64,000 nt of DNA from a virus (Duplodnaviria > Caudoviricetes). The notes under the pieces are model-generated. The model saw only the letters and a list, made by a program, of their open reading frames with translations, did not search any database and was not told the DNA's origin. Of this stretch, positions 5,061 through 50,540 are shown in pieces. Where the stretch lies: the IMG/VR virus record IMGVR_UViG_3300043450_000376, one strand, 5' to 3'. Both the position numbers and the translations under genes were made by a program. The first letter of the stretch is position 1. The number at the start of each line of letters is the position of its first letter.

Positions 5061-5127
5061 GTTAATAACTTTTTGAAAAATAATTGACCCCAGATTTTTT
5101 AGTTTGGGGTTTTTTGTTTATATTTAC
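5060..5127 (+). promoter_or_regulatory. class I promoter with no downstream ORF
   Basis: TGTTAATAAC at 5060; TATATTTAC at 5119. Confidence 0.65.
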
Positions 5128-5223
5128 TATGTCAATCAATCAATAAGACGGGACGGTTCTGAACAAGGAAGCGGGAGGTATACTCCGACCTACCTCTATA
5201 TTTGGCTAGGATTACAGGAAAAT

Positions 5224-39491: not shown

Positions 39492-41804
39492 ATGTTTAAA
39501 AAACCACTCTACATATTATTAGGACTTGTCCTATTCTTAATTCCAGCACTAGGTTTTGCGCAAGCAACAACAGTTAATCTTGGAACAAGTAGTAGTGGGG
39601 TTGTATCAGTTAGCTTTAATACATGGACCAAAGTTGATCCAAACATATCAATAACAGCAAATGGTACAATTACTGGTTTTAGGGTTCAAATATCTCAAGC
39701 CTATACAAGTGGTGCAAGCGGAGATCAATTAAGATCTACCGCAACTCTGCCATCGGGAATATCAGTTGCTGCATTTAATACAACTACGGGAGTCTTAGCA
39801 TTTAGCGGTTCCACCACTGCCTCTAATTGGCAAACTGTATTAAGTGGAGTGGAGTTTAGATCAACTACTTCAACCTGCTATGCGTTACAAAGAAGAATTA
39901 CTTTTGTAGCAGGTACAGTATTTTATAACCCATTAACCGAACACTTCTATGAATATGTTTCAGGTACTACATCTTGGACCAATTCCTATACGGCGGCATC
40001 TGCTAAATCATATTTTGGCCGAGCTGGATATTTAGCAACAATGATGTCAGAAGCAGAAAATAATTTTGTTTGGAAGTTAATGGCAAATGATGCTTGGATG
40101 GGAGCGTCTGATGACTATAACTATATTAATACCGCAAAGGGTTCAACCGTTTATGCTAGTCAATCGGCAGCTGAAGGTAAATGGCACTGGGTTACAGGTC
40201 CAGAAAAAGGTCAAAACTTTTCAAACGGAAATACCCCAAGCACAACCTTAGTATCGGGTATGTATCATAAATGGGCAGGCGGCGAGCCTAATGGTACATC
40301 AGAAGCTTTTGGTCAATTCTATTCTTCAAATAATGGCCAATGGAATGACTTAGCCAATAGCACTCTACCTGGTTATATTTGTGAATATGGAGATATGCCT
40401 GGAGATATTACATCAAGTACTACAATATTAACCCGAAGTATTGAGATTAGCGGAGCATCGAGCGGTTATATTTCAGGTGGAGATATTAATGTTTGTTCAG
40501 GTTCAAATAGTACAACCCTAACTCTTAATAGTTATACTGGAAGTATTGTAAGATGGGAATCTTCTTTTGATAACTTCTTTACTGCAGGTACTACAATTTC
40601 AAGTACGTCCGCTAGCATCACAGTTACTAACTTAACTAAGACTACATATTATAGAGCAATTGTAAATTCAACTAGCCCAACTACTTGTTCAGGTTTAGCA
40701 ACATCGAGTAGCGCTCTATCAGTTAAGCCAACAACCGCTGGCTCGGTATTCGCAGCAAACAATTCAATTTGTGCAGGCGGTCAAGCTGAACTAACCTTAT
40801 CTGGTCAACAGGGTAATATTAATAAATGGCAAAGGTCAACTGATAATGTTAACTGGACTGATATTACAAATACGACTGCAAGTTTAACTCAAACTCTTAA
40901 TACAGCAGGTACCTATTATTATAGAGCACAGGTGCAAACACCAAACTGTGGAAGTGCAGTTAATACTAGTGCTAAGACCATTACCGTTACATCGGGAACT
41001 CCGCCAGTCGGAGGATCAGTTTCATCTGCAGTTCATGCAACCGCAACCAATTCAGGTACGCTAACGCTTAGTGGACATACCGGAACTATTGTTAAATGGC
41101 AACGTTCGGCAAATGATGGAGTAACGTGGACAGATATTACAAATACCTCTACGACCAATTCATATTCAAATCAAACCGATGGTGTTTTGTATAGAGCTCA
41201 ATTACAAAATGGAACATGTGGATTTACATTTTCAACTGCAGGAATAATTACAGTTGCACCATTTACATATTCCGGAACTGTTTACAATTCAGAGGTAATC
41301 GTTTTTCCAAACGTTGAAGTTAAACTATATTCTAAACTTAAATCTGATCTAACCTATTCTTTTAATAGTTCGTCTACTACTAATGCAAGCGGAGTATACT
41401 CATTCACAACTTCTCTAAGTGTAAACAAATATGATTTTAGAGTGTCAATTGAATCTATTACAACTACAATTCCAACATCGACTGATGCTCAAACATTTAC
41501 CAATAAGATTTTAACACAAACATTTAACTCAAAGGATTACTATAGAATTGACGCAAATAATAATAACTCATTATCAATTACAGATGTGTTCTTAATTTAT
41601 TCTAAAGTTAACTCTACTATTTTAACTTGGCCAAATTCAACACCAGACTATAGAATATTCTCGGCAACCCAATGGTCTACTATTAATAGTGGAACAGCTA
41701 ACATGAAATCTACTTTACCTGGACAACAATCGCTGCTAATAGATGGGCCAGTTTCAGGTGGAACAACTAACTTTTATATAGTTAGAACTGGAATTCGCCA
41801 GTAA
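39492..41804 (+). CDS. secreted adhesin-like protein: C-type lectin domain, Ig-like repeats, dockerin-like C-terminus
   Basis: GYLAT...EN.F.W...W.GA...W.W...W..GEPN...WND...YICEY; repeated KWQRS.D...WTDI; DANNNNSLSITD. Confidence 0.8.
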   Translation: MFKKPLYILLGLVLFLIPALGFAQATTVNLGTSSSGVVSVSFNTWTKVDPNISITANGTITGFRVQISQAYTSGASGDQLRSTATLPSGISVAAFNTTTGVLAFSGSTTASNWQTVLSGVEFRSTTSTCYALQRRITFVAGTVFYNPLTEHFYEYVSGTTSWTNSYTAASAKSYFGRAGYLATMMSEAENNFVWKLMANDAWMGASDDYNYINTAKGSTVYASQSAAEGKWHWVTGPEKGQNFSNGNTPSTTLVSGMYHKWAGGEPNGTSEAFGQFYSSNNGQWNDLANSTLPGYICEYGDMPGDITSSTTILTRSIEISGASSGYISGGDINVCSGSNSTTLTLNSYTGSIVRWESSFDNFFTAGTTISSTSASITVTNLTKTTYYRAIVNSTSPTTCSGLATSSSALSVKPTTAGSVFAANNSICAGGQAELTLSGQQGNINKWQRSTDNVNWTDITNTTASLTQTLNTAGTYYYRAQVQTPNCGSAVNTSAKTITVTSGTPPVGGSVSSAVHATATNSGTLTLSGHTGTIVKWQRSANDGVTWTDITNTSTTNSYSNQTDGVLYRAQLQNGTCGFTFSTAGIITVAPFTYSGTVYNSEVIVFPNVEVKLYSKLKSDLTYSFNSSSTTNASGVYSFTTSLSVNKYDFRVSIESITTTIPTSTDAQTFTNKILTQTFNSKDYYRIDANNNNSLSITDVFLIYSKVNSTILTWPNSTPDYRIFSATQWSTINSGTANMKSTLPGQQSLLIDGPVSGGTTNFYIVRTGIRQ

Positions 41805-41849
41805 TCCAATCCAATTTTCATAGTATAATAACTAAAATAATCAATCGTA

Positions 41850-42077
41850 ATGATAGATTTAAAGGAAGTATCTATTGCCTGGTTTAGATCGTTTAACCCA
41901 ACTCCTGAACAAAGGGCAACAGCAGACGAACGACTCGCTATTTGTGAAGCCTGTCCAGAATCAAAAGTTAATCAATTAAATATTCACTATTGCGGTGCAT
42001 GCGGCTGTCCTCTTAACAAGAAAATTTTCTCACCAAAGGGGCCAAGTGCATGTCCTCAGCAAAAATGGCCCCAATAA
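41850..42077 (+). CDS. small Cys-rich metal-binding protein (DUF6171-like)
   Basis: RLAICEACP...CGACGCPL..K...CP..KW. Confidence 0.7.
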   Translation: MIDLKEVSIAWFRSFNPTPEQRATADERLAICEACPESKVNQLNIHYCGACGCPLNKKIFSPKGPSACPQQKWPQ

Positions 42078-42094
42078 GGGTATATTAATCGTAA

Positions 42095-42322
42095 ATGGCA
42101 AAGTTAAACATACAGTTATTCAAAGAAACAATGGACGAGTTTAAAGACAAGATCGAAAATGATCCGTTTAGAACTGGCGAAATTCTTCGTGATCAATATC
42201 CCGATGAAATTTCAGAAATGTTAGAATTGCTATTTTGGGCAAAGGGCGCTAGGGAAGTAACATTTAAAGTTTCCAAAGATTCCGATGACCTACTTAAAGT
42301 TGAAATCTTAAACAGAAAATAA
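42095..42322 (+). CDS. hypothetical protein
   Basis: ORF track. Confidence 0.65.
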   Translation: MAKLNIQLFKETMDEFKDKIENDPFRTGEILRDQYPDEISEMLELLFWAKGAREVTFKVSKDSDDLLKVEILNRK

Positions 42323-42323
42323 A

Positions 42324-42530
42324 ATGCCACCAGAATTTTACACAGAAGCAGACATTGAAAATGCTCAAGCAAACGCACCAATAGATTACAATAAAGTATT
42401 TAGGGGTTCAACTTATACCGAAACCGAATTAGGTAAATTGTTACTTGAAATTTGGGAAAACCGTAATTGGTTTAGTACAAAGGATATTGATGCGATACGT
42501 AATCAATTAAAAGAAGATAGGAAATTATGA
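42324..42530 (+). CDS. hypothetical protein
   Basis: ORF track. Confidence 0.65.
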   Translation: MPPEFYTEADIENAQANAPIDYNKVFRGSTYTETELGKLLLEIWENRNWFSTKDIDAIRNQLKEDRKL

Positions 42531-42979
42531 TTAGAATTTATTTAGATGATGTACGAACTCCAGTTGAAACTGAATGGGTAGTAGTCCGAAATTATGAAGA
42601 GTTTGTACATTTAGTTAAAGAAACTGGGTTAGAGAATATCGAAGTAATTTCTCTTGACCACGACCTAGGTGATTCGGCTATGAGTGAATACTTTAATAAC
42701 GTAAGTCCTAATTATATTTTAGATTACACGCATATTAATGAGAAAACTGGATATGACTGTGCTAAATGGTTAGTTAACGAGTTTTATGATAGGAATCCAA
42801 AGTGGAGTGACTTATCACGAGACGTAAAGCGAGGTAAGCCTTTTCAATTTCCACTAGTCTATACTCACTCAGCTAATCCAATCGGCAGTGCCAATATCAT
42901 GGGTTATATTAATAACTTCTTTATGAATGAGGCTCAAGCCCAAACTTGTGTACGAGTAACTATTACTCACACAGTATAA
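42527..42979 (+). CDS. cyclic-phosphate-processing receiver-domain protein
   Basis: IYLDDVRTP, SLDHDLG, TGYD..KWL, HSANP. Confidence 0.8.
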   Translation: MIRIYLDDVRTPVETEWVVVRNYEEFVHLVKETGLENIEVISLDHDLGDSAMSEYFNNVSPNYILDYTHINEKTGYDCAKWLVNEFYDRNPKWSDLSRDVKRGKPFQFPLVYTHSANPIGSANIMGYINNFFMNEAQAQTCVRVTITHTV

Positions 42980-42993
42980 AAATATTTTAAATT

Positions 42994-43134
42994 ATGGGAA
43001 TACTTACCGGAATATTGATATGCGCAATATGTGCTGTCATAGTATACATGGCATTTAAACATGTATACTATCATGAAAAAAATGATAAGAAGCTAGTTAA
43101 GTCAATACTAAAAAACAAAAAAAGTAAAAAATAA
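42994..43134 (+). CDS. small membrane peptide (46 aa)
   Basis: Manual translation; N-terminal TM helix, basic tail. Confidence 0.55.
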   Translation: MGILTGILICAICAVIVYMAFKHVYYHEKNDKKLVKSILKNKKSKK

Positions 43135-43142
43135 TATGCAAA

Positions 43143-43168
43143 TTGTCAAAAACTTTGTGTATATTAGC
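43143..43168 (+). promoter_or_regulatory. class I-like promoter of the leader/tRNA transcript
   Basis: TTGTCA...TATATTAGC without the upstream box. Confidence 0.6.
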
Positions 43169-43200
43169 AAATATAAATAACTATACAAAATAACACCGTG

Positions 43201-43299
43201 ATGCAAACACAAATGAACCATATTATCGAGAATTGCTTTAGCCAAGTAGCATATGCTAAGTGGACAGGCAATGACCGTGACTTAGGGTTCAGGCGTTGA
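43201..43299 (+). CDS. putative attenuator leader peptide (32 aa)
   Basis: MQTQMNHIIENCFSQVAYAKWTGNDRDLGFRR; its last codons contain the antiterminator strand. Confidence 0.7.
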   Translation: MQTQMNHIIENCFSQVAYAKWTGNDRDLGFRR

Positions 43300-43334
43300 T
43301 AGGTATTATAAAGTTAGTAACTATGAAAACACTG

Positions 43335-43369
43335 AGCCCGAACCCAAAAAGTTCGGGTTTTTTGTTTTT
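43335..43369 (+). terminator. attenuator terminator upstream of the tRNA array
   Basis: AGCCCGAAC/GTTCGGGTT plus T-runs; 5' arm overlaps CTGAGCCC, complementary to GGGTTCAG at 43285-43292. Confidence 0.85.
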
Positions 43370-43378
43370 ACAGAATAG

Positions 43379-43400
43379 GTTCTTTGACATGTTGGAAAGT
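43379..43400 (+). promoter_or_regulatory. rrn-type boxA antitermination element
   Basis: GTTCTTTGACATGTTGGAAAGT immediately before tRNA-Phe. Confidence 0.7.
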
Positions 43401-43404
43401 ATTT

Positions 43405-43477
43405 GGACAGGTAGCTCAGTAGGTAGAGCACAGGACTGAAAATCCTGGTGTCGGCGGTTCGACCCCGCCCCTGTCCA
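43405..43477 (+). tRNA. tRNA-Phe(GAA)
   Basis: Cloverleaf; loop CTGAAAA. Confidence 0.95.
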
Positions 43478-43478
43478 C

Positions 43479-43556
43479 GTTGGCTGTAGCTCAGTTGGTT
43501 AGAGCGTCTGATTGTGGTTCAGAAGGTCGTGGGTTCGATTCCCATCAGTCACCCCA
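43479..43556 (+). tRNA. tRNA-His(GTG)
   Basis: G-1, loop TTGTGGT, encoded CCA. Confidence 0.93.
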
Positions 43557-43558
43557 TT

Positions 43559-43643
43559 GGAAGTTTGTCAGAGTGGTCTATTGTGCAGCTTTGCTAAAGC
43601 TGTGGATGTCAAAGTCCCGAAGGTTCGAATCCTTCAGCTTCCG
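43559..43643 (+). tRNA. tRNA-Ser(GCT)
   Basis: Loop TTGCTAA, long variable arm, G73. Confidence 0.93.
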
Positions 43644-43657
43644 CTTAAAATTGTTGC

Positions 43658-43765
43658 TGGTAGGTGGTGAAATTTGGCAGACACGACCTCCTGTCTCGGG
43701 GTTAAAGATCGGAAATAAAGCGAAAGCCTAATCCCTTTGTACTGGTTCGAATCCAGTCCTACCAG
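43658..43765 (+). tRNA. atypical tRNA-like RNA, GTC anticodon, 38-nt variable arm
   Basis: Acceptor TGGTAGG/CCTACCA, Leu-type D arm, loop CTGTCTC, T arm ACTGG-TTCGAAT-CCAGT. Confidence 0.7.
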
Positions 43766-43795
43766 CAGTAGTTAAAAATTTGTAAATTACTTATT

Positions 43796-44224
43796 ATGGA
43801 TAATATAGACAAAGAGTTTTTAAAACTCAAAATACAGAAACAATTGGAGCATGATCGAATCGATCGTGCCAAAAGGATTAGGGAATATTGGGAAACTGAA
43901 ACTACTCCATTTAAGGAGCCACATGAAGTTCCAACTATTCCTAGAGCAGAGCCCGAAGAATATAAAAACTTTTATATTCCTAAACTTATACAAAGAGGTG
44001 CAATTCCAAAACGCGACCTGATCCACGGTCAAGTTTATATTGGCGATACACGTAATGCCACTACTGCAAAATGGAATGCAGACCTGCAAGAGTTTGAATA
44101 CTGGCGATATAAGTTCGGTAACACTTATATTGATACTTGCAATCATTTCGAAGATGATAATGGATTTGCCCTCTTTGTTCCTATCAGATTAGGAGAAGAA
44201 AAAGATTGGAAAAAAAGTGAATAA
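43796..44224 (+). CDS. hypothetical protein inside the tRNA region
   Basis: ORF track; AIPKRDL..G..Y.G..RNAT.A.W motif. Confidence 0.75.
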   Translation: MDNIDKEFLKLKIQKQLEHDRIDRAKRIREYWETETTPFKEPHEVPTIPRAEPEEYKNFYIPKLIQRGAIPKRDLIHGQVYIGDTRNATTAKWNADLQEFEYWRYKFGNTYIDTCNHFEDDNGFALFVPIRLGEEKDWKKSE

Positions 44225-44234
44225 AAATTTTTTA

Positions 44235-44260
44235 GTGTCAAATATTTGTTTTATATTTGC
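44235..44260 (+). promoter_or_regulatory. promoter with an exact Bacteroidota -7 element (TATATTTG)
   Basis: TGTCA...TATATTTG at 44252 matches TAnnTTTG. Confidence 0.7.
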
Positions 44261-44271
44261 TCTAATTCAAT

Positions 44272-44345
44272 CGAACTGTAGCTCAGTTGGTTAGAGCACT
44301 CGCCTGATACGCGAGTGGTCGATGGTTCGAGTCCATCCAGTTCGA
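44272..44345 (+). tRNA. tRNA-Ile(GAT)
   Basis: Loop CTGATAC. Confidence 0.93.
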
Positions 44346-44350
44346 CTCAT

Positions 44351-44422
44351 AGTTTCTTAGTTCAATGGATAGAACACTTGACTACGGATCAAGAGATAAG
44401 GGTTCGAGTCCTTTAGGAACTA
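44351..44422 (+). tRNA. tRNA-Arg(ACG)
   Basis: Loop CTACGGA. Confidence 0.93.
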
Positions 44423-44428
44423 CTATAG

Positions 44429-44498
44429 GTACAGGATGATCGTGGTGGTCGGATAGTCTGCAAAACTATTGGTGTTGGTTCGATTCCAACCTTGTACT
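44429..44498 (+). tRNA. tRNA-Cys(GCA)
   Basis: Loop CTGCAAA, U73. Confidence 0.88.
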
Positions 44499-44506
44499 CA
44501 ACATAC

Positions 44507-44577
44507 ATGCCTGTGGTGAAATGGTATCATGTCGGTCTCCAAAACCGCGGTTAGAGGTTCGAATCCTTTCAGGTGTG
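44507..44577 (+). tRNA. tRNA-Trp(CCA)
   Basis: Loop CTCCAAA. Confidence 0.9.
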
Positions 44578-44583
44578 CAAAAT

Positions 44584-44658
44584 GTCTTGGTAGCTCAGCG
44601 GTAGAGCTCTCGACTGTTAATCGAGTGGTCGCAGGTTCGAATCCTGCCCGGGACGCCA
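44584..44658 (+). tRNA. tRNA-Asn(GTT)
   Basis: Loop CTGTTAA, encoded CCA. Confidence 0.95.
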
Positions 44659-44662
44659 ATAT

Positions 44663-44737
44663 TGCGGGATGTGTAGAAGATGGTTATCTCGTCAGTCTCA
44701 TAAGCTGAAGTCCCCGGTTCGAGTCCGGGTCCCGCAA
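44663..44737 (+). tRNA. tRNA-Met(CAT), elongator type
   Basis: Loop CTCATAA; acceptor TGCGGGA/TCCCGCA; slightly irregular D arm. Confidence 0.85.
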
Positions 44738-44744
44738 CAAAAAT

Positions 44745-44818
44745 GATCTCGTAGCTCAGTTGGCTAGAGCACCTCACTTTTAATGAGGGAGTCGATGGTT
44801 CGAGTCCATCCGGGATCA
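44745..44818 (+). tRNA. tRNA-Lys(TTT)
   Basis: Loop CTTTTAA. Confidence 0.95.
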
Positions 44819-44821
44819 CAA

Positions 44822-44902
44822 ATGTAAGTAGAATATAGAAATGGCGAGTTCAGTATTCCTCCCAATTACGCCTATGCAAAGGAGGTCGAATTCTACTTAC
44901 AT
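44822..44902 (+). ncRNA. candidate small pseudoknotted ncRNA
   Basis: Perfect 13-bp closing stem around a pseudoknot. Confidence 0.6.
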
Positions 44903-44906
44903 GCAT

Positions 44907-44981
44907 GCTTTCTTAGCTCAGTTGGTTTAGAGCATCTCGTTTACACCGAGAGGGTCGTAGGTTCGAATCCTACAGAAAGTA
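44907..44981 (+). tRNA. tRNA-Val(TAC)
   Basis: Loop TTTACAC. Confidence 0.95.
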
Positions 44982-45012
44982 CATAGTATAATTAAATTAG
45001 TATAATAACTGT

Positions 45013-45684
45013 ATGAGAAACGAATTTGAAAAATACGCGATGAGTAAGCATGGCATTTCTTCACTGAATATGCACTACCATCAAAAACAGATTGAGTCGT
45101 CAATGACTCCTTATATTTTAGAAGAGCGCGAATTACGTGCAACTCAAATGGATATTTTTTCCAGATTAATGATGGAAAGATTAATTTGGGTAGCCGGGCC
45201 AGTCAACGATCATATGTCGACTATTGTTCAAGCTCAGCTAATGTTTTTGGATTCAGTTGATGGATTAGATATTACAATGCATATTGATAGTCCAGGCGGA
45301 AGCGTTAAGAGTGGTCTTTCAATGGTAGATGTAATGGACTATATTAACTGCGATATCAAAACAGTTAATACTGGAATGGCTGCATCAATGGGATCAGTGT
45401 TGTTAGGAGCAGGAACAAAAGGAAAGCGCTCCTCACTAAAACACTCAACTACAATGTTGCATCAGTCTTCAGGCGGTTTTAGCGGAAATATCCAAGATGC
45501 TGAAATCGATATGCAAGAGTGGCAAAAGGTAAATGCTGAGTTGTTTGTTTTACTAGGTGGATATTGTGATAAAGATCCAGAACAGGTAAAACGGGATGCA
45601 ACTCGAGACTTTTGGTTAAATGCAGAAGAGGCCAAGGCATATGGAATTATTGATGAAGTAATTACAAAAAAGCCTAGAAAATAA
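45013..45684 (+). CDS. clpP: ATP-dependent Clp protease proteolytic subunit
   Basis: MDIFSRL, IDSPGGSV, GMAASMGSVLL, MLHQ, RDFWLNAEEAKAYGIID. Confidence 0.95.
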   Translation: MRNEFEKYAMSKHGISSLNMHYHQKQIESSMTPYILEERELRATQMDIFSRLMMERLIWVAGPVNDHMSTIVQAQLMFLDSVDGLDITMHIDSPGGSVKSGLSMVDVMDYINCDIKTVNTGMAASMGSVLLGAGTKGKRSSLKHSTTMLHQSSGGFSGNIQDAEIDMQEWQKVNAELFVLLGGYCDKDPEQVKRDATRDFWLNAEEAKAYGIIDEVITKKPRK

Positions 45685-45689
45685 TAATT

Positions 45690-45771
45690 GGGAGTATCGC
45701 ATAGCGGCAATTGCCAGGGACTGTAAATCCCTCCTCATTCGAGTTCGGTGGTTCGAGTCCACCTGCTCCCA
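45690..45771 (+). tRNA. tRNA-Tyr(GTA)
   Basis: Loop CTGTAAA, long variable arm. Confidence 0.95.
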
Positions 45772-45777
45772 CAAAAA

Positions 45778-45799
45778 GGTCTTTGACATATTGGAAAGT
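45778..45799 (+). promoter_or_regulatory. rrn-type boxA element, second copy
   Basis: GGTCTTTGACATATTGGAAAGT, near-identical to 43379. Confidence 0.7.
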
Positions 45800-45803
45800 A
45801 CAC

Positions 45804-45874
45804 TGTCCTGTGGTGTAAAGGCAGCACATCTGGTTTTGGTCCAGATAATCGAGGTTCGAATCCTTGCGGGACAA
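45804..45874 (+). tRNA. tRNA-Gln(TTG)
   Basis: Loop TTTTGGT. Confidence 0.93.
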
Positions 45875-45882
45875 CATGGGGC

Positions 45883-45986
45883 TTGTGGAAGTCCAAGAGT
45901 AGGCAAGTAGCTTATATCCACAATGGTGAAGAGAACCCTTAGTTTATAGATGGTTACTATAAATCAAGTAGACGTCACACTTCACC
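45883..45986 (+). ncRNA. candidate two-domain structured ncRNA
   Basis: Three 7-bp perfect helices. Confidence 0.45.
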
Positions 45987-45991
45987 TATTT

Positions 45992-46064
45992 GCCTCCTTA
46001 GCTCAGCTGGTAGAGCAACTGATTTGTAATCAGTAGGTCGTTGGTTCGATTCCGACAGGAGGCT
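45992..46064 (+). tRNA. tRNA-Thr(TGT)
   Basis: Loop TTTGTAA. Confidence 0.95.
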
Positions 46065-46129
46065 CAATACAATTATTAACCTGTTTATAGTATAATAACT
46101 ATAATTAATAATTTAAATAAAGTATACCT

Positions 46130-46303
46130 ATGCAAACATTAGCACAAATCCAAGCAACACTTGACGCGGTTCAAGCAGATGCAGTAAAGTTTTTCGAAAG
46201 CGGAAACAAATCAGCTGGAACGAGAGTTCGTAAAGCCATGCAAACTATCAAAAGTCTAGCACAAGATGTTAGAGCTGAAGTTTCGGCTAAGAACAACGCT
46301 TAA
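46130..46303 (+). CDS. Hc1-family histone H1-like protein (57 aa)
   Basis: Manual translation MQTLAQIQATLDAVQADAVKFFESGNKSAGTRVRKAMQTIKSLAQDVRAEV. Confidence 0.8.
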   Translation: MQTLAQIQATLDAVQADAVKFFESGNKSAGTRVRKAMQTIKSLAQDVRAEVSAKNNA

Positions 46304-46369
46304 CCTATTGAATTTTTTAAAATTCAACTAAGTCTACTCCGGTCGAGACTATAAATAAGGATCGGAGAT

Positions 46370-46443
46370 GGGGGTGTAGCTCAGTTGGCTAGAGCATCTG
46401 CCTTGCACGCAGAGGGTCGCAGGTTCGATTCCTGTCACCTCCA
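46370..46443 (+). tRNA. tRNA-Ala(TGC)
   Basis: Loop CTTGCAC; G3:U70. Confidence 0.95.
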
Positions 46444-46445
46444 CT

Positions 46446-46633
46446 ACAAATCTTACATAAGACGGGTTAGCACCGTTGAAAGAGACCTTGGCTTCGTGGG
46501 AGTAATTACCCAATGAAGTATACATGACCCAAGGTATTATGTGATGGACCCTGCTCTGTAGTGCACTTACACCAGGTGAACAGTAAACTATGTTCAATCA
46601 AATCCACAAGCATGGTGAGCATGCAAGATTTGT
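46446..46633 (+). ncRNA. candidate multibranched ~190-nt ncRNA
   Basis: 9-bp closing stem plus about nine internal helices. Confidence 0.65.
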
Positions 46634-46638
46634 TTTTT

Positions 46639-46710
46639 GGCCCCATCGTCTATCGGTTAGGACGCCAGGTTTTCATCCTGGAAAGTCGGGTTCGACTCCC
46701 GGTGGGGCTA
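46639..46710 (+). tRNA. tRNA-Glu(TTC)
   Basis: Loop TTTTCAT. Confidence 0.95.
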
Positions 46711-46717
46711 CACAATT

Positions 46718-46789
46718 GGTCCTGTAGTTAATCGGCTATAACGCCGCCCTGTCACGGCGGTATGCCGGGTTCGATTCCCGGTGGGACCG
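46718..46789 (+). tRNA. tRNA-Asp(GTC)
   Basis: Loop CTGTCAC, G73. Confidence 0.95.
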
Positions 46790-46794
46790 CAACT

Positions 46795-46895
46795 AGTTAG
46801 GAGTCCATTGGTTGGAGGCACCTCCCCAAGGTTGAGTACAGTTAGGCTGACTCTTTATGGCAAAGCTGGAATAGGTTCGAATCCTGTCCTGACTA
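46795..46895 (+). tRNA. atypical tRNA-like RNA with enlarged D domain (possible TAG anticodon)
   Basis: Acceptor AGTTAGG/CCTGACT, T arm ATAGG-TTCGAAT-CCTGT, bulged anticodon-like stem. Confidence 0.55.
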
Positions 46896-46975
46896 CAACA
46901 GTGTCTCGGTACGCTCTGACGAAAGTTAACGACGAGGTCCCGGCAGGCAGAAGGCCTCTGATCCTGCCCAAAGCT

Positions 46976-47047
46976 GCGAATATCGTATAGTGGTTATTAC
47001 TCCATCCTTCCAAGTTGGAGACGACAGTTCGATTCTGTCTATTCGCT
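46976..47047 (+). tRNA. tRNA-Gly(TCC)
   Basis: Loop CTTCCAA, U73. Confidence 0.92.
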
Positions 47048-47102
47048 CAAAAAGTTTTTAGGTATATTAAAAACTATTATTAACTAAGTAATACAATAAA
47101 AC

Positions 47103-47531
47103 ATGAATATCACAAAAGCACTTAAACAGAAAAACAAATTAGTTTCAAAAACTAATGAGTACATTTCGCATGTTTCGGCGTACAACTCGATTCAAGAAGG
47201 AACTACACGTCCTTATGATGCAAGAGAAGCGTTGGAAAAAGCAATGGCGTCGGTTGATGAATTAGTTGCCCTAAAAACAGCTATTCACAAAGCTAACTCA
47301 AAGGTTTATGATAAAATCTTTAAATTGGCTGAACTAAAATCTTTGGTTTCTAAATTGAAAAGTTTGGATTGCAAAGAAGGAATGCACCAATCATATCGAA
47401 TGGATGCTCCAGTAAAATACACTACACAAATCTCAATTGTTGAGAAAGACCAGTGGATTGAAAAATTGGAGTCTCAAATCGAGATGTTGCAAGAGGAGTT
47501 AGAAGCTCACAATGCAAAAACCAAAATTTAA
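47103..47531 (+). CDS. coiled-coil protein resembling the DIP1984/DUF6847 family
   Basis: MNITKALKQKNKL...LVALKTAIHKAN...IFKLAELKSL...IEMLQEELEAHNAKTKI. Confidence 0.65.
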   Translation: MNITKALKQKNKLVSKTNEYISHVSAYNSIQEGTTRPYDAREALEKAMASVDELVALKTAIHKANSKVYDKIFKLAELKSLVSKLKSLDCKEGMHQSYRMDAPVKYTTQISIVEKDQWIEKLESQIEMLQEELEAHNAKTKI

Positions 47532-47536
47532 AATAT

Positions 47537-47730
47537 AGGGGAGAGAAAAGAGTGAAGGGGGATCGGTAGCAACAAATGGCCACAAGCTATTTCTTACATA
47601 CTAGCTATCCAATCGATGTTAAGACGAAGACACTGAATTCAAAGTTCAAGATTCAAGTAATTCAAAAATGGGCAAGTCAAAACACAACAATCTTTCAGCG
47701 AAAATTTTTTCGGATCTCTTTTCAAACCCT
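47537..47730 (+). ncRNA. candidate structured RNA with tandem TTCAA repeats, downstream of the DIP1984-like gene
   Basis: Ends pair (AGGG/CCCT, GAAAAGAG/CTCTTTTC) and are followed by a T-run. Confidence 0.5.
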
Positions 47731-47802
47731 TAATTTTTTTTTTACTTTTATTAAACCGATATAGAATAAAGTAGGTATAATAAATAAGTAAACACAAAAT
47801 AA

Positions 47803-47812
47803 GTTCTTTGAA
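47803..47812 (+). promoter_or_regulatory. boxA-like element before the large ncRNA
   Basis: GTTCTTTGAA downstream of promoter-like TAGGTATAAT. Confidence 0.6.
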
Positions 47813-47822
47813 TTTTATTGAT

Positions 47823-48672
47823 ATATGTAGCCTAGCTTGCTAGGTTGCAACACGGTCGCCTATGATCGTTAAATAAATCTGGAAACAGATATAAAGTGGA
47901 GCTATAAGACTTATCGGCTCTGCGGTTTCGCAAGGAACTCAAGTAGGCAAGCAGGATATCAGAAGTCCTGAGTATCTGAGGGTAACACTGTAGGAGAAAT
48001 GGAATGCTGACTAGGCGATGTGGGTCGTTTAGTTGAGAGGGGAACCTCAATAAGATTAACCTGTAGGATATTTGCAAGGAGTGGACTCATCCGACTCCAT
48101 GATTGCGAACTCCAATTTAATGGGAACCTTAAAGTCGAAAGACAAGTTGGTGTACAGACGGTGCTGTTACTAACCTTATCATCAGTCTACCAAGGCTGCA
48201 GTTAAGAGGAATCCGGAAAAATTGAGGTAGGGATATCTCAGAGAGTAGTTAAGTATCGACCCTGACAAAATCGGGGTTGGCCTAATGACGAGCCACTACT
48301 TTCATAATCCACAGAGTCAAAAACTTTGGAATAAAGTTCTATTGGTGAATAACTAATCCAACCCAAAAAACAAAGCTTAAGCGCTCGTCAGCTGCGAACG
48401 AAAGGTGCCTACCTAGTAACTGGTTGTCAGTTGCCGTAGAGGATCGCAAGTCCAATACGAGTTCTCAGAAAAATCTATAGCCTCGCAAGGGTTAACGGGA
48501 TCGGCAGATTCTGGTAGATATAATATGAGGAGAGTAGTTCAAACCCGCAGCTCAAGGAGTGGTACACCTAAAAAACCGGCACTGTTAGAATAGAGATCAA
48601 AAGTCTCTGGATAAGTAGGGAAACAATAATCCTATGTAAAGATCTAACGTTAAAACGTATAATCTCAGCGTT
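47823..48672 (+). ncRNA. large structured ncRNA, GOLLD-like
   Basis: About 850 nt without a credible ORF, between tRNA genes; many hairpins and GNRA/GCAA loops; duplicated GAGAGTAGTT; 3' end GGGAAACAATAATCC...AATCTCAGCG plus T-run, matching my recollection of GOLLD. Confidence 0.7.
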
Positions 48673-48711
48673 TTTTTACTTTCCAACAATCACATCTTGA
48701 AAATATTATAT

Positions 48712-48784
<73 letters not shown>

Positions 48785-48794
48785 CTAAAAAGAA

Positions 48795-48817
48795 AAAGCC
48801 GCAATTAGCGGCTTTCT
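48795..48817. terminator. bidirectional terminator between convergent units
   Basis: AAAGCCGC/GCGGCTTT. Confidence 0.75.
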
Positions 48818-48840
48818 GTGTTTATCTAGTTTATTATAAG

Positions 48841-49782
48841 TTATGCAATAGTTGATGCATAGTCTAGTGCTCTTGCATAACCTCTTGCACTATGGCCGGC
48901 ACGAATATCTGTACCCCATCCAGCATTGGCTTGAACATAGTCAGTAACAGCAGATTCTAAATTATTGTAGGAGTTTAGGTCTTTACCCTTTCCTTTAAAA
49001 CTATTAATAAAGTACAACATTGCAAATTCAGCTGCAATATTTGGATCTTCTAGTAATTCAGGTTCCTCAACAATATTAATTTCAGTACCAGCTTTAAGCT
49101 TACCCATTTTATCAAATAGGTCTTGCAGTTTTTTATAGTTAGCCTTAAATGTTATTTGGTTAAATCCACGACCTCTATATCTAGCCCCATCGCCAGGTTG
49201 AGTATTGCCGTATTTTACACCACGACCAGTTGGATCGTCTACTCCATATACTCTATCCCAAAATTTAGTAGGCTCTTCTTTTAGTGCAGTAAGTTGACTA
49301 TCGGAAAGATCTGCTACTCTTGCACCATATACTTCTCTGATTCTTGAATTTGAAGTATTACTATAGTCCCCTTCTGGAGTTAAGTTTGAACTTTCTTTTG
49401 AAATTACACCAAGAATTGCTTTTCTTGCAAAGTCATTTGTAATTCCATGTCTTTCCATTGCAGCCTCAAGCGCTAAGACGTTTTCTGCTGGAATTTTCTT
49501 GTCAAACTTTTTAAATTTAGTAGACGACTTAGCAGAATCTGATTTAGATTTTTCTTTATCATCAGCTTTAGTATCAGTCTTTATACCTAGGGCAGAAGCA
49601 GTCTTATCTATAACTGCAGCTGCGGTTGATCCAGGTTCTGCAATTGAAGTTACTGAACTTGGTGCAGGCTCAACTGCCTTTCCGGTAAATGCCGATGTTG
49701 CAAGATCGCCAATCCATCCTAAAAATGAAGTGTCTTCATTTAATCTTTGCCATGACTTAAAGTCTCTAATGTTTTGTCCCAT
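48841..49782 (-). CDS. GH19 (chitinase-like) peptidoglycan hydrolase with capsid-targeting-like N-terminus
   Basis: GDGARYRGRGFNQIT..ANY; MGQNIRDFKSWQRLNE; AGATAAATA at 49806-49814 (minus). Confidence 0.8.
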   Translation of the reverse strand: MGQNIRDFKSWQRLNEDTSFLGWIGDLATSAFTGKAVEPAPSSVTSIAEPGSTAAAVIDKTASALGIKTDTKADDKEKSKSDSAKSSTKFKKFDKKIPAENVLALEAAMERHGITNDFARKAILGVISKESSNLTPEGDYSNTSNSRIREVYGARVADLSDSQLTALKEEPTKFWDRVYGVDDPTGRGVKYGNTQPGDGARYRGRGFNQITFKANYKKLQDLFDKMGKLKAGTEINIVEEPELLEDPNIAAEFAMLYFINSFKGKGKDLNSYNNLESAVTDYVQANAGWGTDIRAGHSARGYARALDYASTIA

Positions 49783-49860
49783 TAATAATTAGTTATTTCT
49801 ATAAATATTTATCTAAGGAAGATAACCCAGTTAACAAACGTAGTATAATAACTTAGTTAT

Positions 49861-49949
49861 GCCGACGTGATGAAACAGGTAGACATGAGAGACTTAAAAT
49901 CTCTTGGGCAGTAATGCCCGTGCCGGTTCGATTCCGGCCGTCGGTACCA
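49861..49949 (+). tRNA. tRNA-Leu(TAA)
   Basis: Loop CTTAAAA, long variable arm, encoded CCA. Confidence 0.95.
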
Positions 49950-49966
49950 AAAATAACCTCAACTAA

Positions 49967-50254
49967 ATGTCAGAGGAGCTTACTAAAGAAGAGCGAGGAA
50001 AAATCCTTGCTGAAATGATGCGATTAGACCAAGAGGCTGGTTTATATGATGAACCGGTTGAAAATCCACTAGTCAAAGAAAAATTAAAGGACACTAATTA
50101 TTATAAATTTGCTGGCACTACGCCAGACGGATTTGTCCTGATTCCAACCGAAGTTATCGATATGCTAGATGATTTTGAAGAGTGGAAGGATTTTAAATAT
50201 AGAAAGTTTGAATGGATAGAAGAAAAATCCAAACAGGTTTTAAGAGTAAAATAA
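49967..50254 (+). CDS. hypothetical protein
   Basis: ORF track. Confidence 0.7.
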   Translation: MSEELTKEERGKILAEMMRLDQEAGLYDEPVENPLVKEKLKDTNYYKFAGTTPDGFVLIPTEVIDMLDDFEEWKDFKYRKFEWIEEKSKQVLRVK

Positions 50255-50267
50255 AATAAAGAAAACG

Positions 50268-50540
50268 ATGATTAATGTAATTTATTTCTCAGCGCCATGG
50301 TGTGGACCATGTAGAACATTTGGTCCAGTTATGGAAAAAGTAGCTGAACAGTTTAACGAAAACGATTTAGTTGAAATCACTAAAGTAAATGCGGATGAAG
50401 ATCCAGATACAGCAGCCCTACATGGAATTAGATCAATTCCTGCCCTGGTATACTTAAAGGCAGGCGAAACTGTACACCAATCGGTTGGCGTAAAATCCCA
50501 AGCAGATATTATTGAAAAAATTAATGAGCTATTAGCTTAA
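50268..50540 (+). CDS. trxA: thioredoxin
   Basis: WCGPC active site. Confidence 0.93.
   Translation: MINVIYFSAPWCGPCRTFGPVMEKVAEQFNENDLVEITKVNADEDPDTAALHGIRSIPALVYLKAGETVHQSVGVKSQADIIEKINELLA

Follow-up and report, generated by a model that had tools for sequence, protein, structure and literature searches.

A leader cassette at the head of a phage tRNA array

The 64,000-nucleotide (nt) stretch of DNA analysed here (the window; IMG/VR record IMGVR_UViG_3300043450_000376, Caudoviricetes) is part of a large phage genome with a host of the freshwater Bacteroidota type, and it carries 24 tRNA genes, all on the plus strand and starting at 43405. Upstream of the first of them lies a cassette composed of a promoter-like region, a short open reading frame (ORF) and an intrinsic terminator. 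We consider it likely that this cassette is a ribosome-mediated, multivalent leader-peptide attenuator heading the phage tRNA array, and that its sensing codons are drawn from the amino acids which the array itself serves. The main reason for regarding the cassette as more than a chance assembly is that its whole architecture recurs in divergent relatives. Sequence comparison shows the ORF, the terminator and an alternative helix that covaries with it, placed at the front of the array, and a match between the repertoires of leader and array. An initial annotation of the window had proposed a translated leader whose 3′ end competes with the 5′ arm of a terminator in front of the tRNA genes, and this proposal is supported by seven lineages with covariation.

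All parts of the cassette lie on the plus strand. The putative promoter region (43143–43183) contains the −10-like hexamers TATATT (43160–43165) and TATAAA (43172–43177), followed by a conserved start-proximal block, ATAAATAACTA. The leader ORF of 32 codons (43201–43299, stop codon included) starts with ATG at 43201 and stops with TGA at 43297–43299. Codons 2–27 (43204–43281), with 18 kinds of amino acid, form the proposed sensing window. Codons 29–31 contain segment 2, GGGTTCAG (43285–43292), the 5′ strand of the predicted antiterminator, which ends 4 nt before the stop codon. The predicted antiterminator form has an inner hairpin (43296–43327) with the stop codon in its 5′ strand, and segment 3, CTGAGCCC (43332–43339), overlaps the 5′ arm of the terminator. 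The terminator itself (43334–43369) consists of a 10-bp GC-rich stem (43334–43343/43351–43360), the loop CCAAAAA and a T-run (43358–43369); its hairpin (−13.9 to −17.2 kcal/mol) ranks second among the terminator-like sites in 41500–50500. After 35 nt, which include the boxA-like GTTCTTTGACA (43379–43389), the T-run is followed by tRNA-Phe(GAA) (43405), tRNA-His(GTG) (43480) and tRNA-Ser(GCT) (43559), which together occupy 43405–43644. The ORF, the strong terminator and the three tRNA genes of the initial annotation were thus confirmed, and its promoter and boxA stand as motif resemblances within a block (43137–43404) that is conserved in three close relatives.

In the mechanism that we propose, the promoter at about 43143–43183 would start a transcript opening with the 32-codon ORF. 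A ribosome at the stop codon would cover segment 2 and the stop-codon hairpin, segment 3 would pair with segment 4 to form the terminator, and transcription would end at 43369. A ribosome delayed at any of codons 2–27 by scarcity of the cognate charged tRNA would leave segment 2 free to capture the emerging segment 3; the terminator would be blocked and RNA polymerase would continue into tRNA-Phe, tRNA-His and tRNA-Ser, and probably through the rest of an 18-tRNA block. As the leader samples each amino acid served by the block, the switch would behave as an OR gate, opened by shortage of any one of the charged tRNAs supplied by the block. Abundant phage tRNAs would allow fast reading of the leader and turn the array off again, a negative feedback. 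The polarity of the switch and the extent of read-through are what we infer from this arrangement. Its presumed physiological triggers, namely anticodon nucleases, starvation or loss of host tRNAs, are plausible in view of recent work on phage tRNAs as counter-defence (PMC10264068, PMC11555353).

Seven divergent leader lineages

Three IMG/VR contigs (L002–L004) carry the cassette (43137–43404) almost unchanged while the adjoining ORF of 46 amino acids (aa) diverges or is deleted; the cassette is therefore more strongly constrained than its neighbours. The promoter region is nearly invariant in these contigs and the terminator hairpin is invariant; being near-identical, they are uninformative for covariation. 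More distant kin were obtained by searching whole records with the leader DNA, which matched at its two ends only, the promoter-proximal block and the terminator, the middle having diverged. Further leaders came from scans keyed on the conserved tRNA-Phe core, in viral contigs and metagenomes, and on two peptide motifs.

Seven divergent leader lineages, from uncultured freshwater phages, were assembled in total. The window type (the window and L002–L004) encodes a peptide of 32 aa. The G005-type (L054, L058, L053, L065, L060, L235 and L237) has peptides of 42–43 aa and a GTG start. The L061-type comprises L061, L098, L148 and L228, with the subtypes L164/L223 and L230/L234, the latter from phages of 117–434 kb, and its peptides measure 40–42 aa. 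The L056 lineage (L056/L062; 31 aa) and the L067 lineage (L067; 29 aa) are smaller. Two leaders come from the single record G015: leader 1 (L037:1384–1467; 28 aa) and leader 2 (L217:4295–4417, corresponding to G015 C1 ~188994–189116; 40 aa).

In all seven lineages a promoter-like block is followed by a small ORF, a hairpin with a T-run and the first tRNA gene of a long array (8–35 tRNAs). The start-proximal block of the window, with TATAAT/TATAAA, also heads the divergent leaders of G005, G003 and G015. In the G005- and L061-types the first tRNA gene begins about 5–15 nt past the T-run, with no room for a promoter, and the tRNAs of these phages can therefore be transcribed only through the terminator.

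The usual dose is one leader per phage record, with two in G015, and the leader always heads an array. With a peptide profile, members of the first six lineages came up in 18 of 38 phage records, a single time in each; a weak additional match in G015 proved to be its second leader, and the profile gave nothing in some complete relatives. A tblastn search with the leader peptides of L061 and L053 found no match in 50,697 deposited phage genomes, and consequently no laboratory system is available from this leader family. The L061-type motif had one real match among 185,579 bacterial and archaeal species genomes, probably a mis-binned phage contig.

An alternative helix that covaries with the terminator

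Segments 2 and 3 of the window, GGGTTCAG and CTGAGCCC, can form seven Watson–Crick pairs and one G–U pair. The initial annotation had stated that this pairing excludes the terminator, and the overlap of segment 3 with the 5′ arm agrees with it. When the 3′ arm is withheld, the predicted fold is indeed the segment 2:3 form (−21.4 kcal/mol, z −3.45), which with its inner hairpin is more stable than the terminator hairpin; the minimum-free-energy (MFE) fold pairs segment 2 instead with a candidate segment 1 (TGAACC; codons 5–6, 43214–43220). A segment 1 partner at codons 3–4 recurs in L061, L098, L148, L164, L230 and L233 (P.01–.4).

Measured against shuffles, the duplex between ORF tail and arm in the window (−16.2, P.006) beats 99.4 per cent of them. 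The corresponding values are −18.7 (P 0) for L054, P.002–.006 for the other G005-type leaders, P 0 for L230/L234, P.018 for L037 and P.05 for L061.

The terminator arms vary from lineage to lineage, and each ORF tail carries the matching complement. The window has the arms CCCGAAC/GTTCGGG and the tail strand GGGTTCAG; the G005-type has CCTCGAA/TTCGAGG and CGAGGTTC, with 11 bp in L054. In L061 the arm CTCCGGATC faces the tail strand ATCCGGA, in L230 CTCCAGATCC faces GGATCTGGAG, in L067 ACCTCGGGA faces TCCCGAGGT, and in G015 leader 1 CCTCAAC faces GTTGAGGT; the tail strand of L098/L148 is AGATCTGGA. In nine of eleven leaders the arm that gives the tail its best pairing is its own, ahead of the arms of all other lineages (own mean −13.0, others −7.5 ± 2.8 kcal/mol).

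Compensatory changes distinguish L061 from L098. Another pair is found in L237, of the G005-type, where C→T in segment 2 and G→A in segment 3 convert a C–G to a U–A pair while the peptide changes from Ser to Leu. Moreover, the same 16-nt antiterminator strand is read in different frames in L098 (2036–2227) and L148 (8778–8968, minus strand), both of which stop at AGTTAA. The compensation in L237 and the frame shift between L098 and L148 argue that the tail is conserved as an RNA strand with translation to a fixed stop, and not as a peptide.

The stop-codon hairpin, AGUUAA…UUAACU, recurs in other lineages, and in an alignment of the G005-type 39 of 42 cells are paired. As this hairpin would hold the stop codon inside the antiterminator form, it offers an explanation for the observation that nearly all leader ORFs end in AGT followed by TAA or TGA. 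In most lineages segment 2 ends 3–13 nt 5′ of the stop codon, a position that a terminating ribosome would cover.

The leader mirrors the repertoire of its array

The initial annotation had noted that the first 28 codons of the window leader use 19 of the 20 amino acids, Pro alone being missing. This count is correct and unusual compared with random phage-protein segments (P ~0.004). Residue diversity as such is not a lineage-wide trait and was rejected as one: P is.024 in L056,.05 in G015 leader 1 and an ordinary.2 and.4–.9 in the G005- and L061-types, respectively. The related proposal that a many-residue leader senses many tRNAs is supported in a more precise form, as the amino acids of a leader match those of its own array. 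The property conserved across the leaders is this mirror of the array repertoire and not diversity as such.

In the window, residues 2–27, that is, those before segment 2 and its abutting Leu codon, comprise 18 amino acids, and these are the same 18 that are served by the tRNA genes at 43405–47048; none of 300,000 random phage-protein segments achieved this. The 18-tRNA block (43405–47048, plus strand) has gaps of at most 708 nt. Beyond it lie tRNA-Met (48712), after a gap of 1.7 kb, and tRNA-Leu(TAA) (49861), after one of 1.1 kb. With Leu and the two more tRNAs up to 49949 added, leader and array both hold 19 amino acids and both lack only Pro; a tRNA-Pro gene lies 8.2 kb beyond the tRNAs ending at 49949. 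At the codon level, 93 per cent of the codons in the sensing region (2–27) are cognate to array tRNAs, against 68 per cent expected (P 0.005).

The same relation was found in other lineages. All amino acids of the proximal array are present in the leader of the window (19/19; closer block 18/18), L060 and L054 (15/15), L053 (14/14), L148 and L164 (11/11) and L098 (9/9). The G005-type arrays serve 14–15 amino acids and have no tRNA for Cys, His, Leu, Arg or Ser; their leaders cover all the array amino acids, and the only extras before segment 2 are Ser, or Ser and Leu. The L061-type arrays start with the same eleven (Phe, Lys, Pro, Ala, Trp, Gln, Ile, Asn, Gly, Val and Tyr), and their leaders contain all eleven, Met, Ser and little else. 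Array amino acids make up.82–.94 of the leader residues, compared with.56–.77 in random segments, and the joint P for full coverage and enrichment is 7e-5 for the window, 6e-4 for L060 and <5e-5 for L148 and L164. Arithmetic on the enrichment fractions shows no excess of array amino acids in the ORF tail that begins with segment 2, as the model predicts, since a stall there would mask segment 2.

Two leaders were analysed after the hypothesis had been formulated. In L067 the residues 5′ of segment 2 are of 14 kinds, and the first 15 tRNAs serve precisely these 14 (0 of 400,000 random segments); the next tRNA follows after a gap of 1.4 kb. In G015 leader 2 all 18 amino acids are covered (18/18, Jaccard.95, P 5e-4); although this leader is a homologue of the G005-type leaders, Leu, Arg, His, Cys and Ser are present in it, and they correspond to the extra tRNAs of the larger block behind it. 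Finally, the seven lineages were compared in a permutation test under a single rule (a gap of 1000 nt) applied to all. The actual assignment of leaders to arrays reached the highest total similarity of all 5040 permutations (P = 1/5040), and five of the seven leaders ranked their own array first.

A switch dedicated to Phe was also considered, tRNA-Phe being usually the first gene of the array. It was rejected on inspection: Phe is neither enriched in the leaders nor placed where a stall would free segment 2.

Probable translation of the leader and alternative explanations

Peptide identity to the window leader is 16–34 per cent across the lineages, and the ORF is nevertheless kept at the same place in all seven. 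The leaders differ in length by whole codons, with the frame kept across indels. The mid-peptide sequence …Q-V-G-I-A-K-W-Y-N-G… of the L061-type resembles …Q-V-A-Y-A-K-W-T-G-N… of the window, and its codons vary synonymously. These features point to a coding leader ORF that is presumably translated, and the kept frame together with the synonymous variation disfavours a purely non-coding RNA. No Pfam or PHROG family was found for four leader peptides at E up to 0.1.

Conservation at the protein level could also point to an attenuator that senses something other than tRNA supply, either because the nascent peptide arrests or slows the ribosome when a small molecule, or a factor from phage or host, is present, or as a timer of overall translation capacity, with the match to the array as a by-product. 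Mid-peptide motifs are conserved as protein (Q-V-x-x-A-K-W in the window and the L061-type, N-W-N-Q-Y-P in the G005-type), a Trp lies 11–12 residues from the C-terminus in the window and most L061-type leaders, and the AGT-stop ending is nearly universal. The resemblance to TnaC and SecM extends to the short ORF ahead of the regulated genes, in which Trp and the context of the stop are both conserved; those systems act by peptide-specific ribosome arrest, and tna through Rho. However, conserved residues are equally expected if each sensing codon must stay. The distance from Trp to the end varies (15 in L056, 28–29 in the G005-type), L037 has no Trp, and the AGT-stop conservation is accounted for by the stop-codon hairpin. 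The intrinsic terminator and covarying antiterminator explain the anatomy of the window leader, and arrest is unneeded. Such an attenuator would also leave the exact identities between leader and array sets, and the permutation result, unexplained. We regard it as unlikely.

Alternatively, the ORF might simply encode a small phage protein and be closed by a terminator that belongs to it, with the tRNAs arising from leaky, unregulated read-through or from undetected promoters. The ORF is conserved, including at the protein level, short genes are commonly followed by strong terminators, and the window has both 35 nt between T-run and tRNA-Phe and promoter-like sites inside the array. This explanation meets difficulties in the ORF tail, which complements its own terminator arm and is kept as RNA and not as peptide, as the frames of L098/L148 and the compensated Ser-to-Leu change of L237 indicate. 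It also meets difficulties in the composition of the leader, which mirrors the array, in the lack of promoter room before the first tRNA in the G005- and L061-types, and in a peptide without a protein-family match. It thus seems quite improbable. Still harder to credit is a small non-coding structured RNA with its own promoter and terminator and an incidental open frame, like other non-coding RNAs of the tRNA region. In its favour, shuffled sequences fold less stably than 43190–43375 (z −3.9), close relatives have the region almost unchanged, and a GOLLD RNA and a near-threshold match to freshwater-1 lie in the same array. Against it, the frame stays open in seven lineages whose DNA can hardly be aligned, where frames are compensated and synonymous variation occurs; amino-acid content follows the array; and an Rfam search of 42000–50000 (E up to 1) gave on the leader only a chance-level Thr_leader match to the terminator (E 0.56).

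Considerations that weaken the proposal

Several observations weigh against the attenuator that we propose. Translation, termination and regulated read-through are deduced from geometry and comparison. Assembled RNA-library contigs from two studies do span the terminator (43001–43460 and 43190–43389), which is weak evidence: they are assembled contigs without ends, levels or strand, and DNA carry-over is possible. The alternative helix is weak in L056 (P.19 against shuffles), as is the segment 2:3 helix in L164/L223 (−6.8 to −9.5), and the trp-like segment 1:2 helix in the window MFE fold is no better than shuffles (P 0.46). Promoter-like sites within the array (44237–44262 and ~47050–47075) could feed distal tRNAs independently.

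The repertoire match has exceptions as well. The L056 leader misses Cys and Glu of its array, and G015 leader 1, with 17 kinds of amino acid, fronts an Asp-Met-Met block. Some G005-type arrays have no tRNA-Lys, -Asn or -Val although these residues are still in the leader, from which it follows that leaders do not track every recent tRNA loss. For a given amino acid, the leaders use cognate codons only a little more often than expected (z 0.3–2.2), and codon-level tuning beyond amino-acid identity is accordingly weak. The gap threshold and the boundary of the sensing window were the analyst's choice; results held at 1000 and 2000 nt and for the part of a 3000-nt run that was completed.

Relation to known regulatory systems

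Leader-peptide attenuators of amino-acid biosynthetic operons include trpL, hisL, leuL and pheL of Escherichia coli and Salmonella. The cassette shares with them a short leader ORF, an intrinsic terminator and an alternative helix on the 5′ arm of the terminator, as well as the proposed choice between folds by ribosome position and the sensing of charged tRNA. It differs in that the genes regulated would be phage tRNA genes and not biosynthetic enzymes, and that the leader has no run of a single codon but one to a few codons each for 11–19 amino acids. The output, tRNA, would itself be the sensed molecule, which gives direct feedback. The window counterpart of the 1:2 pause helix of this class does not stand out from shuffles.

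The closest likeness is to the multivalent attenuators, the ilvGMEDA leader with its Ile, Val and Leu codons and the thr leader with Thr and Ile codons, where a single leader samples several amino acids and termination is relieved as soon as one of these runs short. Those leaders use two or three related amino acids with repeated codons, whereas up to 18–19 unrelated ones are found here, and the set matches the downstream tRNA repertoire and covaries with it between phages. The pheM leader of pheST is an instance of attenuation of a gene of the translation apparatus and, in this respect, resembles the cassette; unlike the window leader, pheM controls a synthetase, concerns one amino acid and is cellular.

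Three features that define attenuators of this class were found in the leaders. An intrinsic terminator stands before the regulated genes in every lineage. An antiterminator shares a strand with the terminator and could be masked by a terminating ribosome, although it is weak in L056 and L164/L223. The putative regulatory codons are cognate to what the array supplies, in an unusual many-amino-acid form.

T-box riboswitches lie in the leader RNA of genes for aminoacyl-tRNA synthetases and amino-acid metabolism, where they are bound by uncharged tRNA. The choice between terminator and antiterminator that reports the state of tRNA would be common to both systems. The T-box needs no translation and reads one tRNA via a specifier codon and the T-box bulge, whereas the leaders described here have a conserved ORF. 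A T-box riboswitch was rejected, as Rfam gave no T-box match in 42000–50000 at E up to 1.

The boxA-like GTTCTTTGACA between the terminator and the first tRNA recalls boxA/Nus antitermination of the rrn type, which serves untranslated stable-RNA operons and in which NusB/NusE bind the boxA. Unlike the attenuator, such an element would act after the decision has been made, and the motif is missing in most other leader lineages, including the G005- and L061-types. It is kept in L002–L004, and the same motif immediately precedes the first tRNA in L067 and L072, whose contexts are unrelated. In these two, upstream of tRNA-Phe, GTTCTTTGACATATTGG stands in contexts without a leader ORF, and in L072 it directly follows the promoter. 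This suggests that GTTCTTTGACATATTGG is a separate, portable element of stable-RNA transcripts.

A full-text literature search found no account of attenuators before phage or cellular tRNA genes, an absence that is no proof of novelty, and one genome-wide attenuator survey contains no attenuator before tRNA genes.

Neighbouring elements of the tRNA region

The nearest cultured kin of the window phage are the Flavobacterium ‘immuto’ phages, and the relationship is only distant. Just 5′ of the leader promoter lies the hydrophobic ORF of 46 aa (42994–43134, plus strand), which has diverged in L004 and is missing from L002 through a deletion that one RNA-library contig shares (joint 42980/43127). 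No further leader cassettes were found before tRNA-Pro, -Arg, -Leu and -Ser at 58–63.5 kb of the window.

The aberrant tRNA which the initial annotation had placed after tRNA-Ser corresponds to a tRNA-like stretch at 43650–43770 (plus strand), whose acceptor helix is long and which has a T arm and contains a large insertion. It is covered by RNA-library contigs (43645–43775) and was called neither by ARAGORN nor by the Rfam tRNA model.

A promoter-like motif (GTCAAA..TTTGT..TATATTnGC or AAAGT(N)GGTATAWT) recurs in the window at 43145–43170, 44237–44262, 5113–5130 and ~47050–47075. The copy at 44252 agrees with the −7 box of Bacteroidota, TAnnTTTG, and is separated from the tRNA-Ile gene 3′ of it by 14 nt. 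At 47536–47744 (plus strand) a long-range stem of GGGGAGAGAAAAGAG with CTCTTTTC…CCC encloses some 195 nt as a domain and has a T10 run (47735–47744) behind it; a local 71-nt fold in this element alone is not stable. The T10 run behind the long-range stem (~47716–47744), with the promoter-like site at 47772–47781 after it, may mark the end of the 18-tRNA unit. Given the promoter-like sites at 44237–44262 and ~47050–47075, the attenuator may not be the sole input to the distal tRNAs of the window array.

Other structured RNAs were observed in the same region. A GOLLD RNA (48241–48671, plus strand) gave a full-length model match of 243 bits (E 9e-69) and has tRNA-Met (48712) directly 3′ of it; on its 5′ side are the promoter-like TAGGTATAAT (47772–47781) and the boxA-like GTTCTTTGAA (47803). 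The spacer between tRNA-Ala and tRNA-Glu contains an Rfam match to freshwater-1 RNA (46540–46602, plus strand; 71.2 bits against a gathering score of 72, E 2e-15).

Odd tRNA calls were encountered in related phages, at loci in L215, L217:4158–4233, L219:5213–5284, L218:3852–3927 (minus strand) and L219:3124–3195. One is a 73-nt ‘SeC’ with the anticodon TCA (L215:13831–13903, minus strand), possibly an opal-reading tRNA, and another is a 72-nt ‘Leu-TAG’, too short for a class II tRNA. The A34 anticodons His-ATG, Asp-ATC and Gly-ACC also occur in these phages.

Implications for the biology of phage tRNAs

The purpose of phage tRNA genes has been debated for decades. The roles proposed include codon compensation, the replacement of degraded host tRNAs and escape from tRNA-cleaving defences (PMC10264068, PMC11555353). 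Nothing addressing the control of phage tRNA expression was found in our literature search. We lean towards the view that the leaders act as a general demand sensor, in which a pan-codon leader would test exactly the tRNAs that the array encodes and open the terminator when any of them is short, the leader being rewritten as the array changes and tRNA expression being self-limiting. Such a sensor could double as an automatic response to host tRNA degradation or to anticodon-nuclease defence and, going by the seven lineages, the principle appears to be widespread.

If the leader spells the repertoire of its array, phages would measure decoding capacity and adjust their tRNA output to it, and the question of what phage tRNAs are for becomes testable, namely as the question of which shortages open the switch during infection. 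Leader-peptide attenuation would then reach beyond amino-acid metabolism and govern the translation apparatus itself, and a leader would sense nearly all twenty amino acids instead of one to three. The element would also offer a compact, naturally occurring template for sensing translation stress through multiple inputs.

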